From Octopus vulgaris (taxonomy: Eukaryota), in NCBI GenBank assembly GCA_951406725.2, contig OX597814.1, positions 83,266,001 through 83,330,000 of the forward strand: a DNA stretch of 64,000 nt, written 5' to 3'. Each line of letters begins with the position of its first letter. Within the stretch, counting starts at the first letter, position 1. The notes below the pieces were generated by a model that was not told the DNA's origin, did no database searches, and saw only the letters and a program-made list of their open reading frames with translations. Shown here piece by piece: positions 4,410 through 51,592 of the stretch. The position numbers were made by a program, and so were the translations under genes.

Positions 4410-5220
4410 GGTAATCTTTATATCCAACTTAGCATGAATGTCTTGTTAGAGCACTGAATAGTGCATCATTAACCTTGAGAGATCCTCTCATATAGGTGCT
4501 TGGTGCATACAAGTACACACACCAGTTATAGAAGACAAGAATTGTCTTGTCATGGTTGCTGGAATCCCCATATCACATGATTTCACTTAACTGAAAATCA
4601 TCAGTGGGAAGTGTCTGGTCACCACATGCCAGTCAAATCTGACTGCTACAATATATTGAATACCAGTAGCTTTTCAGACACTGTTGTCGTAAATACCCAG
4701 CAGGCTTATCAAAAATTAATTACCTGCAACAGAAGCAGTATTAATACAAAATGGTAATCTTTCTATCCAACTTAAAATGGATGTCTTGTTAGAACACTGA
4801 ATACTGTGTTATTAGCCTCAGAAGATCCTCTCAAAATAGGCGCTATGATTTATGTGTGTGTTTTTATGTTCCAGGTGCCTATTAATACCTTTTGGTATAA
4901 ATGCTGATTCTGTCACTAATAATTAATTTTTGATAAGCCTGCTGGCTATTTGTGACATTAGTGTCTGAAAAGAAGCTCATATTTTATATATTGAAGCAAG
5001 ATTCGACCTCTGATGATTTCCAGTTGAATGAAATCACATGGCATGACAGACAGTCCTCATCTGCTATGATCTATGTGCGTGCTTTTATGCACCAAGCACC
5101 TATATAAGAGGATCTCTCAAGACTAATAATGCATTATTCAGTGTTCTAACAAGACATCCTTATTAAGTTGGATATAAAGATTACATTATTTTGGTATTAA
5201 TACTGCTGCTGTCGCTGATA
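4410..5220. mobile_element. Head-to-head tandem of a ~340-bp non-coding monomer carrying a hammerhead-like motif (retrozyme / Penelope pLTR-like)
   Basis: 4411-4503 repeats at 4754-4843 (period ~343); 4921-5185 is the inverted copy of 4410-4722; ends in (TA)n. Confidence 0.6.
4565..4610 (-). ncRNA. Putative type I hammerhead ribozyme (weak stem II)
   Basis: Minus strand ttccca-CTGATGA-ttttcagttaagt-GAAA-tcatgtga-TA-tgggga: 6-bp stem I, intact core, stem III closing on an AUA triplet. Confidence 0.5.
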
Positions 5221-5268
5221 ATAATATATATATATATATATATATATATATATATATATATATATATA
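5221..5268. repeat. (TA)n microsatellite
   Basis: Direct reading. Confidence 0.95.
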
Positions 5269-6362
5269 TCATCATCATCATTTAACGCCCGCTTTCCATG
5301 CTAGCATGGGTTGGACGGTTCAACTGGGGTCTGGGGAGCCCGAAAGCTGCACCAGTCCAGTCAGATCTGGCAGTGTTTCTACAGCTGGATGCCCTTCCTA
5401 ACGCCAACCACTCCGAGAGTGTAGTGGGTGATTTTATGTGCCACCGGCACAGGTGCCAGACGAGGCTGGCAAACGGCCACGCTCGGATGGTGTTTTTTAT
5501 GTGCCACCGACACAGGTGCCAGACGAGGCTGGCAGACGGCCACGCTCGGATGGTGTTTTTATGTGCCACCGACACAGGTGCCAGATGAGGCTGGCAAACG
5601 GCCACGATCGGATGGTGTTTGTTACGTGCCCACAGCACGGAGACCAGTCGATGCGGTACTGGCTACGGCCACGTTCGGATGGTTTTCTTGTGTGCCACGT
5701 GCCACCGGCACTGGTACCACAAAGATACAAATTCCATTGATGTTCATCTATTTTGATTTGTTTTGATTTGATTTTCACTTGCCTCAACAGGTCTTCACAA
5801 GTGTCACAAGAAGGAAGGTATGCACAGGTGGACTGACTACGTCCCAGGTAGGGGCCACAGGTTATGGCCTGACTAGTCTTGCCGGGTCTTCGGATGGTGT
5901 TTTTATGTGCCACCGACACAGGTGCCAGATGAGGCTGGCGAACGACCACGATCGGATGGTGTTTGTTACGTGCCCACAGCACGGAGGCCAGTCGGTGCAG
6001 TACTGGCTACGGCCACGTTCGGATGGTTTTCTTGTGTGCCACTGGCACTGGTACCACAAAGATACAATTCCATTAATGTTCATCTATTTTGATTTGTTTT
6101 GATTTGTTTTGATTTGATTTGATTTCATTTCATTTTGATTTTCACTTGCCTCAACAGGCCTTCACAAGTATCACAAGGAGGAAGGTATGCACAGGTGGAC
6201 TGACTACGTCCCAGGTAGGGGCCATGGGATATGGCCTGACTAGTCTTGCAGGGTCTTCGGATGGTGTTTTTATGTGCCACCGACACAGGTGCTAGATGAG
6301 GCTGGCGAACGGCCACGATCGGATGGTGTTTGTTATGTGCCCACAGCACGATGGCCAGTCGA
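5268..6362 (-). mobile_element. Young RTE LINE 3'UTR with internal ~62-bp repeats and a ~345-bp higher-order tandem duplication
   Basis: Nearly identical to 35500-35977; (ATC)n tail at 5268-5281; block 5553-5895 repeats at 5896-6262 and partially at 6263-6362. Confidence 0.9.
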
Positions 6363-7399
6363 TAAATTTTTTACTTAATTATGTTGTGAAATTTCTTGCT
6401 CATTTCATGATGAAATAGGTAGATAGTTCTTGTAAATTTCTCAGATTATTTTAAATTACCTAATTGTAGTTTACATTCTGAACTATGAGCTTGATATTCA
6501 AATCAAATTTATTTTCAGTTAATTTAGGATTTAATGGAGAATTAATTGATCTCTGAAGGCCTTCTTTACGTCTTTGTGTTGCCAAAACATTAAAACTTGT
6601 GACATCTACAATGGGAACATTATGGGACAATTGAGAGAAAATTAAGTCAAATGCCCAAAAAGTTACTCTATTAACTGCTTGGACATTATCTTTTCATAGA
6701 TCTAATGTGAGGGTTAAGATACACAGCTCAGACTTGACATAAGACCAAACTTGACATAATGTACAAACAGATGATACCCCATAAATATCAAAGAACTTTG
6801 GAGAGGTTCTTCATTCTCAAGCAGATGATGATAATGATGAATTGTAAGATAAAAGCAGTGTCCTTTCTCCTCCTGATGGCTCTCATACCCTCACCATCCC
6901 TCACATTGTGAACATCATTTGTGATAAAAACATACCCTATTATGATTCTTATTTATTCCCTAACCTATCTATCTTCAAATGTTAAGTATACATATTGCTC
7001 TGTATATGTATAGAAATTATTATTTTCATGCATAAAACTGGTCATGTTGCTTTTTTTTTTTTAGGAGGTGGGGACAAAAATAATGCCTTGAAACACACTA
7101 TCACTTAATAACTTGAAAATCAATGGTAAAGTTAATTTTGCATTACGGGATTCTGCATTACACCAAGTTTTTCAGGAAACATTGTTTCTGTAATGTGGGG
7201 TATTCCTGTATCCTGTACTATCTCATGGCGCATTATAGAATGTAAAAATAAATTTTGATTGCAGAAATTAATAATTAAACTGAACATTTGCCACAAATAA
7301 ATTAATTCACTGTTTAGATGATTGAAACAGTATAATACTTGAATAATTGCCTGTTTTTATTGTTTTATTCTATTTTATCTAGTCCAGTTCATCATTACT

Positions 7400-7623
7400 T
7401 TAACCCTTTAGCATTTAAACCGGCCATATCCGGCTCAAAATTTTCTACATGTTTTATGTTCAAACTGGCCAAATCTGGCTTCTCACACCTACGTAAGAAC
7501 GTCATTGTAAAAATATATAGTCACATCATTGAAATATCAAAGCTACAAGATAATGCATGATTAATTCAAATCAAGGTGAATAAATAAGCATTACATTTGA
7601 TAATCTGAATACATAAGGGTTAA
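7400..7623 (+). mobile_element. piggyBac-type MITE
   Basis: TTAA-CCCTTTAGCATT ... AAGGG-TTAA; further copies at 8772, 14938, 33541 and ~60535. Confidence 0.85.
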
Positions 7624-8771
7624 ATTGAAATCTCACTGAACTCAGCTTCCTATTTCATTCCTATGTGGTTGTGAAAAATAGTAATATACTGAGATCAGTT
7701 TAACCCTTTTGTGGCTGTATTTCATTATCTATATATTTTAGTTTTGAAAATAATAAATAATCCTAAGGGCTAACATATGTTGTTGTTAAACTGTTATGTG
7801 GAACATGACTTCACAAAAGATTCTTCCATAAAAATTATGAATGGAAGTTTTAAATTAAATATTTAAACACTTTAAAATGAATGGTTTTGTATCGTTGAAC
7901 CATGGGAGGCCTCAGGCCTGTTGATACAGTTAACTAACTGTTTAACAGTTAATTAAATATACACATCTATTTCCAAAGTTATCTTTATAGCCAACCAAAT
8001 GAAATAGTTATACTATTATTTACTGTCAACCACTATATAACAAGAAGTAAGCTTCCCACAAGCCAAATACACAAACTAATTCTGCTGCTTGGTTGAAGAG
8101 AATTCATATCATCATATTGTTAAAGTCTTGGAAAAAGCATTAATATTGCATCTCGTTTTCCTTTCCATATAAAATTCTAAGTTTGTACCTAATAAAAAAC
8201 AAAGTCATATAGCATAGTAATTACAGTGTAACTACATTTTCAGAGAAAGAAATTTGAAATTTTCCAATTGTGACTGTTGCATGTGTATTTCATGTTATTA
8301 GAAAAGGTTCAAATGTAGGTTGCAACTTTGTATTTTGCCTCTATTACAATTTTAATGATTCATACCTACATAAAATATTGCTAATTATTTTAAAATTTCA
8401 TAAAATTTTGTTTTATTGATTTTATGGTAAATAAATGATGATTAGTTTTCTTTTCTTCTTTTTTTTTGTTGTTATTTTATATTTTATTTGGTTCATTATA
8501 TCTTAACAATAAGATTGCTTGTCTTGAAGTTGGGAAAATGTCCCAATCTGCCATCTATTTCTATTTGGTTCCCTGCATTTACCTACAAATACTCATATTG
8601 TAGTCTTATTAGGGTTGCTAAAAACAATGTCAGTCAAAGTATTGAGAGTCTATAATGAAGTTTTCTCTCCAATGTAACTATTTTCTGTTTTATATCCACT
8701 AAATCAATTCCATGCTTTGCAAAAGTTCAAATATTATAATGAATTTACTCAACTAATATATTTTTGGAGAT

Positions 8772-50577: not shown

Positions 50578-50905
50578 TGTGAAGGCACGTGACTTAGTGG
50601 TTAGGGTATTTGATTCACAATCATAGGGTGGTGAGTTTGATTCCCAGCAACACATTGTGTCATTCAGCAAGACATTCTATTTCACGTTGCTCCAGTCCAC
50701 TCAGCTGGTAAAAATTAGTAGTACTCGTATTTCAAAGGGCCAGCCTTGTCACACTCTGTATCACACTGCTTCTTCTTGAAAACTACCTTAAGGGTACATG
50801 TGTCTGTGGAGTGCTCAGCCACATGCACATTAATTTCACGAGCAGATTCTGTTGATCAGATCAACTGAAAACCTCATCATTGTAAGTGACAGTTTACAAT
50901 GTGTG
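50578..50905 (+). mobile_element. tRNA-derived SINE family C
   Basis: A-box/B-box-like head TGACTTAGTGGTTAGGG...GTTTGATTCCC and body TTTCACGTTGCTCCAGTCCACTCAGCTG; other copies at ~25092, 55825, 56150, 62560. Confidence 0.8.
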
Positions 50906-50924
50906 ATATATATATATATATATA

Positions 50925-51165
50925 TATTCATCATCCTCATTTCATGTCTGTCTTCTATTCTGACATGGTTGGAGGGTTTAACAGGAGCTGGTAAACCAGT
51001 GGAACATCTGTTTTTACTCATGAGGAATCTAGCAGAGGCTCCCTTCCATCTTATTTCTGATACACCACACACTTCTACATGCTGTCACTCCAGCATATCA
51101 ATAATCTCACTTGTCCTTCGTTTCATTAAGCTGACATTGATGGTGGCGGCCCTGAAATTGTAGGA
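50925..51165 (-). mobile_element. RTE derivative: endonuclease N-terminus fused directly to the 3' tail
   Basis: Minus strand RAATINVSLMKRRTSEII..VSEIRWKGASARFLMSKN followed at ~50995 by the RTE terminal CCTGTTAAACC.TCCAACCATG..GATGATGA. Confidence 0.7.
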
Positions 51166-51409
51166 AAACAGTTGTGGAACTTTTGTCAGCACCTAAAAAG
51201 ATTTGTGCAAATGCTTGCCAGCTGGCAGAGTGCTTTGGTATGTATATATGTATGCATGTGCATACATATGTGTATATTTGTATGTGTGTGTGTATTTGTA
51301 TATATATATATATATATATATATATATATATATATATTTATGTGTGTGTGTGTGTGTGTGTGTATGTATATACACATATATGTATGTATATATGTATGTG
51401 AGTGTGTAT

Positions 51410-51592
51410 GATAGATCAGTAGCCACTACACACATTTTTGTCTCTCTTTGTTTCTTTCTGTGTTCCTTTCTGTGGAAGAGTGTAGGCTCGAAACGTAAAA
51501 GACTTTTTCAATTCCTGAGCATTATACTAATACATCTGTTTGTTTTTCTACACCCCCTATCTTCTTTTGTTTTTGTCGTGAATTCTCTCCCT
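51410..51592 (+). mobile_element. Penelope-like pLTR 3' end with a minimal hammerhead variant (51466-51501)
   Basis: cttt-CTGTGGA-a-gag-tgtagg-ctc-GAAAC-GTA-aaag; between microsatellites. Confidence 0.55.

Follow-up and report, generated by a model that had tools for sequence, protein, structure and literature searches.

A 64,000-nt window of the Octopus vulgaris genome (assembly GCA_951406725.2, contig OX597814.1, forward-strand positions 83,266,001 to 83,330,000; coordinates below are those of the window) contains hammerhead ribozyme motifs, remnants of Penelope-like elements (PLEs) and numerous TA microsatellites. The question raised by this locus is whether these belong to a single separate system in which small self-cleaving RNAs are mobilised, as a sequence-only reading had proposed, or are what PLEs leave behind. 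The motifs are best read as 5′-truncated retrotransposon ends, that is, as ordinary PLE debris and not as a separate system. It is quite probable that the four motifs and the endonuclease remnants are the 3′ ends of several independent PLE families, likely inserted into (TA)n, and that one of these families, which carries U instead of A at core position 6 (the U6 family), still has its predicted hammerhead fold under selection. Hammerheads in PLE pseudo-long terminal repeats (pseudo-LTRs) and (TA)n targeting in octopus were already known from published work.

The window was scanned with two descriptors. Descriptor 1 comprised the core, helices I (at least 4 bp) and II (at least 3 bp), a palindromic helix III and NUH; descriptor 2 allowed at most one or at most two core changes and was compared with 25 shuffles. 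Hammerhead positions are numbered as in the cited papers. Four minimal type I motifs of unrelated sequence were detected, and the claim that four such hammerheads are present held, beyond chance on strict descriptors, with an intact canonical core in just two of them. With the canonical core, descriptor 1 found two motifs against a shuffle mean of 0.03, and none of 100 block shuffles reached two; with position 6 freed it found three against 0.05, and again none of 100 reached three. Descriptor 2 at no more than one core change found three against a mean of 0.28 (maximum of 1 among the 25 shuffles), adding 22642 on the minus strand.

Both motifs with the intact core lie on the minus strand, show helices I and II, a palindromic helix III and NUH, and have a non-standard first helix II pair. 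The motif at 4604..4571 (within 4565..4610) has a U.U pair at this place and a near-palindromic helix III, and that at 28978..28941 (within 28937..28982) an A.A pair, a 4-bp helix I and a perfectly palindromic helix III. The third minus-strand motif, 22642..22613 (within 22610..22645), was recovered by descriptor 2 and is degenerate, with a U3-A8 core, a 5-bp helix II and C in place of U16.1, the same replacement as in a degenerate motif at 5010 described below (both single copies). The plus-strand motif at 51470..51497 (within 51466..51501) is the U6 variant, recovered by the descriptor with position 6 freed. Candidates at 39549 (−), 24138 (+) and 25464 (+) were rejected for want of GAAA.

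That all of these are chance matches in AT-rich DNA, lying near TA runs because such microsatellites are abundant, is very improbable. Rfam reported no hammerhead among its 54 matches in the window, descriptor 2 at no more than two core changes gave a non-significant four against 2.36 expected, and the window holds 45 (TA)n runs of at least 5 units, all of which would suit a chance origin. The monomer folding energies of five of five motif stretches were also no better than those of shuffles (z −0.97 to +0.87), as expected because the motifs need a partner to form helix III. The two to three motifs of the strict scans, where 0.03 to 0.28 were expected, speak against chance, as does variation in the 51470 family on the hammerhead's free positions. 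For 51470, 28978 and 4604 chance has already been largely refuted.

The 51470 motif lies in a plus-strand copy of a very abundant family (51411..51591, about 180 nt), between a TG/TA microsatellite and a (TA)30 run at the 3′ end of the element (51592..51649); the copy probably represents the 3′ terminus of a PLE of Neptune type. Contigs of four sequencing runs were compared with 51411-51592 at 80% likeness, with a cut of 8% for alternative letters. Three of the runs, each of a different organism label, gave 13,584, 13,063 and 8,738 family contigs, and the fourth, which was only guessed to be RNA, gave 1,262; their depth was highest over the hammerhead motif. Depth relative to long contigs (49.7 and 9.2) gave an estimate of about 10^5 copies, up to about 30-fold inflated by contig overlap, and the family would number between thousands and 10^5 copies.

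The core of this family reads CUG-U-N-GA. It departs from the consensus C3 U4 G5 A6 N7 G8 A9 at A6 and carries the other five fixed letters; at position 6 (51473) no alternative letter reached 8% in any of the four runs. The free position N7 (51474) was A in 20-25%, C in 15-20% and T in 19-31%, and was the sole site of 182 with three alternative letters, which fixes the register of the motif. H17 (51497) changed from A to T in 2-20%, within its allowed letters (A, C or U), and the other fixed core positions had no alternative letter of at least 8% in the four runs. The window copy has T at 51481, where 84-98% of the family has C, giving a G-C pair that completes helix II. The CpG of loop II was variable and two core CpGs stayed below 8%. 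The unpaired base after A9, G10.1-C11.1, helix II, GAAA, palindromic 15.2-16.2, U16.1 and a helix I of at least 3 bp are all present. Three of the four variable sites in the 36-nt motif fell on free positions (P ~0.018).

In the contigs the source elements of the family differ at the free positions N7 and H17, with the remainder of the core unchanged, so that the fold was likely maintained after A6 became U. The pattern of variation indicates that selection acts on a hammerhead fold in which U6 is non-canonical, and the variant is predicted, slightly in favour on balance, to cleave as a dimer at a measurable rate. The bet is close to even because of what is known of the A6C variant, which is less active and prefers Mn2+. 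Such natural change at core position 6 has a parallel in the hammerhead of phage Bcep176 (PMC3088659, PMC7151607); there it is C6 in a single phage sequence and here U6 fixed across thousands of contigs, and the Mn2+ preference is known only for C6.

The family pattern had no match in metagenome contigs or in viral contigs. A U6 hammerhead family was not found among published titles and the starts of abstracts, a search that did not extend to Repbase, Dfam or two key papers; as far as the literature could be checked, a very large family with U6 fixed in its core is new. Two contigs of 2878 and 2877 nt (X4 and X5, of two organism labels) carry the U6 motif at one end and about 2.76 kb upstream of it, which may be either an orthologous flank or a full-length element.

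The clearest PLE in the window is a 5′-truncated Neptune-type element on the plus strand (22839..23682), in which a GIY-YIG endonuclease stands C-terminally behind a reverse transcriptase (RT) thumb and a cysteine linker. It was confirmed by search, with 3,297 relatives at E<=0.001; among six relatives checked in Pfam, three had RVT_1 and GIY-YIG, one RVT_1 alone and two GIY-YIG alone. Tblastn gave 1.5e-41 to P0017, the match reaching into the thumb, and the sole named protein match to the frame at 23.35 kb, with 74% identity over 61% of it, was a record from Octopus bimaculoides. The element was assigned to the Neptune clade by its linker, following the published description and alignment, not by a tree.

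An alignment of 61 Neptune endonucleases (60 of 150 matches plus the window frame) served to fetch 82 loci (80 metagenome, 2 viral), and one minimal hammerhead family was present in 52 of them. Its motif equals that reported from a Neptune element of a coral, and in the 24 loci listed by a stricter scan the distance from the endonuclease match to the motif behind it was 92-131 nt. The 51470 motif was the best match to it in the window (20 of 28 letters, to which shared core letters contribute; 0 of 200 shuffles reached 20), and has the same hammerhead layout, as has the coral Neptune example in PMC4209133. It differs in that the Neptune loci have A6 in 50 of 52 motifs and an N7 nearly fixed as C (47 of 52). 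Core position 4 was C in 9 of the 52 motifs, about 100 nt behind the endonuclease (L007, L011, L012, L025, L027, L029, L065, L070 and L080), which suggests a U4C subfamily; several of these C4 elements end in a short C-rich stretch and not in (TA)n.

Two further GIY-YIG remnants had been claimed besides the Neptune one, and they stand on different ground. The minus-strand remnant at 16.2 kb (16190..16525) appears to be a frameshifted PLE linker and endonuclease of the Hydra clade, near Hydra-1_Obim; it matches the published alignment clearly by eye across its frameshifts, with some cysteines decayed, and has no score in any tool. The Hydra clade is marked by a modified cysteine linker, a GIY-YIG domain lacking CCHH and a CxxC-like motif close to the conserved E. 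Hydra-clade PLEs including Hydra-1_Obim (PMC8557442) share its linker and endonuclease motifs and have a (TA)n preference. The frame at 22.7 kb (22701..22855, −) is likely the C-terminal part of a PLE GIY-YIG endonuclease but is a lead only: its nearest named atlas cluster (score 0.89) has GIY-YIG in 15% of members, and homologue search gave no match. Some 60 nt separate the stop of this frame from the 22642 motif behind it, which thus stands at the place expected of a pseudo-LTR hammerhead. Scans with Pfam (8 stretches) and PHROGs (9 stretches) gave no relevant match for any remnant, the confirmed Neptune one included. The profile of the Neptune alignment gave no significant match to the frames at 27.7, 22.7, 29.1 and 16.2 kb, and ten window regions compared with the fetched Neptune loci gave no strong match except for the Neptune remnant. 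At 22701-23682 two seemingly different PLE remnants are joined exactly 5′-to-5′ near 22845-22855, like the inverted-partner structure of PLEs but between families, possibly through a template switch or insertion beside an older copy.

Published surveys provide close counterparts for these motifs. Cervera and de la Pena 2014 (PMC4209133) reported that animal genomes each contain thousands of such motifs, most of them single and probably derived from truncated PLEs, and the window motifs resemble their metazoan minimal hammerheads in the U-rich 5′ flank, the unpaired base after A9, G10.1-C11.1, palindromic 15.2-16.2 and short helix I, and likewise in being mostly single and belonging to several unrelated families per genome. 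The U3-A8 core variant of 22642 also occurs in that report. In its 56-motif alignment, where no cephalopod is included, every row has A6, which the descriptor required, in contrast to U6 in the 51470 family. Octopus Hydra and Naiad families with a (TA)n preference were described by Craig et al. 2021 (PMC8557442), whose supplement includes a Hydra family of Octopus bimaculoides that bears a hammerhead and inserts into (TA)n. The Hydra-clade 3′ hammerhead has a palindromic helix III and often a U.U first helix II pair, as does the motif of the foldback at 4408-5222. Six 14-17 nt motifs of the 51470, 28978 and foldback families were absent from the supplement text searched, where long runs may be cut, and these three therefore look like other families. 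Elsewhere, 235 hammerhead-1 loci were reported in the giant squid (PMC6962438) and 31 recently active Penelope-like families in O. vulgaris (PMC13282606), in the available text of which the words hammerhead and ribozyme do not occur. The large PLE-linked population that had been proposed is thus borne out in that several motifs are tied to PLEs and at least one family is very large, but it is biology already published.

Three of the four hammerhead families end less than 200 nt from a run of at least (TA)5 (95, 178 and 191 nt), where the background is 8.4% (post hoc P ~0.002). To this extent the ribozyme elements do end in (TA)n as had been stated; the 22642 element, 2138 nt from the nearest such run, does not, nor do the endonuclease remnants. 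When the runs were merged into 23 for a survey of neighbours, CAT-tailed ends of RTE elements or short interspersed elements (SINEs) adjoined 4 and a 5S head adjoined 1. The TA runs are therefore shared landing sites, and (TA)n adjacency is not supported as a marker of ribozyme elements.

A route to this arrangement can be proposed. A tandem PLE transcript would carry one hammerhead per pseudo-LTR, and cleavage would take place in a dimer of two motifs held together by the palindromic helix III; dimeric cleavage through paired motifs is established for minimal PLE hammerheads (PMC4209133). Starting at the 3′ end of the RNA, the PLE reverse transcriptase and GIY-YIG endonuclease would then copy it into (TA)n, as can be deduced from PMC8557442, and early termination would leave mainly short 3′ ends, which would place the hammerhead 95-191 nt from the TA run. 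Most copies in the window, as decayed single motifs, would not cleave alone.

Several observations weigh against the proposed PLE origin and against a U6 fold kept by selection. In the window none of the 51470, 28978 and foldback motifs has an endonuclease physically joined to it, and a PLE origin of these is therefore deduced indirectly. Neither the Neptune nor the Hydra-like remnant is followed by a hammerhead (descriptor scan, for the 5′-truncated Neptune element) or a TA run, and for none of the three named remnants does a TA run lie less than 2 kb from the 3′ end. None of the 47 evaluable Neptune loci has such a run closer than 400 nt to its motif, so that (TA)n targeting is not general in the Neptune clade. 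A covariance model of 47 Neptune-locus motifs, built from one 94%-identical family, missed 51470 at E<=10 and gave only 10 chance-level matches in the window. Within the U6 family most positions are invariant at the 8% cut, so that fixation of U6 is by itself weak evidence, and the three variable sites at free positions include a CpG. Contig depths do not count copies and are biased towards the reference letter, and cover drops after 51546, which puts the (TA)n junctions of other copies out of view. Finally, A6C cleaved with a kobs below 0.1 per min (PMC3088659) and far more slowly in Mg2+ than in Mn2+ (PMC7151607).

These kinetic data bear on a serious, though less favoured, alternative, namely that a single A6U change inactivated the motif and the family amplified regardless, cleavage being unneeded for PLE copying; it competes solely with the activity part of our explanation. 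Changes of A6 were harmful in published assays (PMC3088659, PMC7151607), Naiad PLEs underwent massive amplification without canonical hammerheads, and Craig et al. (PMC8557442) suggest that hammerheads may parasitise PLEs. The diversity at N7 could, moreover, be older than U6 if subfamilies exchanged sequence. In diverging source elements a dead motif should nevertheless drift everywhere, yet in four runs N7 varied four ways and H17 within its allowed letters, and the rest, including two CpGs, stayed below 8%.

Selection on the U6 fold thus remains the preferred interpretation of the family. The stronger statement, that one of the most abundant retroelement families in octopus genomes replicates through an active hammerhead whose CUGUNGA core is kept by selection across several source lineages and is invisible to CUGANGA descriptors and Rfam, is offered tentatively and may well prove wrong. 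If CUGUNGA is active, cleavage may need a dimer, a protein or a shifted metal-ion preference like that of the A6C phage variant, and cephalopod ribozyme counts would miss between thousands and about 10^5 copies. A massively successful natural family would then have replaced a position that is near-invariant in the best-studied small ribozyme, and families of this kind would escape standard searches. If U6 is inactive, a huge PLE family would have spread while conserving a hammerhead fold that is silent, a result relevant to the open question in PMC8557442 of whether transposition of PLEs requires their hammerheads.

The element most like a small mobilised RNA is a foldback at 4408-5222, which had been described as centred on a hammerhead. 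The foldback is real; it is not centred on a hammerhead but has one motif in each arm. Two head-to-head arms of a non-coding, AT-rich unit of 299-343 nt, 71-83% alike, each slightly exceed one unit, and their 3′ ends both face TA. Arm A (4408..4844, −) contains about 1.3 copies of a 343-nt unit, with the 4604 motif, and has its 3′ end at a (TA)4 run (4399-4406). Arm B (4886..5222, +) contains about 1.1 copies of the same unit, here of 299 nt, with a degenerate motif on the plus strand (5010-5045) that has lost U16.1, and ends at (TA)23; this TA run, at 5224, is common to the foldback and a CAT-tailed RTE/SINE end. A partial tandem with an inverted 5′-adjacent copy is known from PLE insertions (Craig et al. 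2021, PMC8557442), and the foldback shows this pattern.

The foldback is also the point at which the idea of a distinct, multi-family population of small non-autonomous, self-cleaving circular RNAs resembling retrozymes, mobilised by PLEs and cleaving or folding intronic host pre-mRNA, finds its best footing. It resembles non-LTR retrozymes (PMC7229834; bioRxiv 10.64898/2026.07.22.740005) in its non-coding, AT-rich unit of about 300-340 nt, which carries a single type I motif, and in a length exceeding one unit, and the U6 family is very abundant. It differs from them in having 1.1-1.3 units per arm, arranged head-to-head and decayed, with a minimal motif, where Li et al. 2026 (bioRxiv 10.64898/2026.07.22.740005) take two complete units as the retrozyme criterion. 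No two consecutive complete motif units were found in the window, and the U6 contigs had only a few single-contig joints and no common head-to-tail joint. Cleavage of single minimal motifs was not detected in vitro (PMC4209133), and among 9 Xenopus retrozyme dimers 8 yielded no product (bioRxiv 10.64898/2026.07.22.740005). Such a population is accordingly improbable here; nothing in the window but the foldback at 4.4-5.2 kb is retrozyme-like, and the notion of one separate system is not upheld.

Its proposed effect on host transcripts fared no better. The sole hint of host gene direction is a candidate exon on the plus strand (10934..11153) with a strong acceptor and donor and an open frame that includes a serine-rich 72-aa stretch; a search with it gave no usable match. 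Relative to this exon three of the four motifs (4604, 22642 and 28978) are antisense, the degenerate motif at 5010 is without U16.1, and 51470 is a lone minimal motif. With motifs that are antisense, degenerate or alone, and no cleavage of single motifs detected in vitro, cleavage of host pre-mRNA is unsupported.

The 28978 motif belongs to a minus-strand repeat ending at a TA run (28762..29400), within a small foldback of 34-nt arms (28816-28849 and 29010-29043) that encloses it. Coding tests of the upstream part of this repeat were negative (Pfam, PHROGs and profile comparison with the Neptune alignment), and an endonuclease remnant at 29.05-29.33 kb tied to the motif was dropped, as nothing supported coding. 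No RNA data set was listed as containing 28770-29400. A second, shorter copy of the terminus (38715..38796, −) is 75% identical and abuts an insertion of RTE type. This element of about 3.2 kb (35500-38714), by eye an RTE-type long interspersed element (LINE) on the minus strand with a CAT-repeat tail and 63-nt tandem repeats, is inserted at the terminus of the copy, and related pieces lie at 2385-4200, 5270-6360 and 54380-55770.

Three AT-rich blocks next to (TA)n had been put forward as further element ends. The block at 19827-19920 has no hammerhead and no second copy within the window. That at 27430-28303 contains a candidate decayed GIY-YIG frame (27660..28040, +), 263 nt before (TA)31, seen by eye and with a profile comparison of E 0.33; homologue search and Pfam and PHROGs scans of it gave no match. 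The third, of which 28594..28702 (−) forms a 108-nt block between TA runs, has both hammerhead core halves and lacks the helices; it was missed by both descriptors, and the candidate at 28676 (−), being only core halves, was not counted as a motif.

Between the last two blocks, at 28359-28543, a 5S rRNA-like head (Rfam 58.5 bits) straight after (TA)31 is followed by a short tail and a TA run, likely a 5S-derived SINE, and at 28303-28761 three or four different elements are nested in one TA array. A near-perfect foldback of 550 nt at 31031-31583, between two TA runs (arms 87-95%, 37-nt centre) and without a hammerhead, is possibly a miniature inverted-repeat transposable element (MITE). A hairpin at 32067-32161 has below-threshold Rfam matches to mir-279 and mir-44, the seed being apparently inexact, and at 56679-57602 inverted ends of 109 nt (94%) surround what by eye is a decayed mariner-type transposase.

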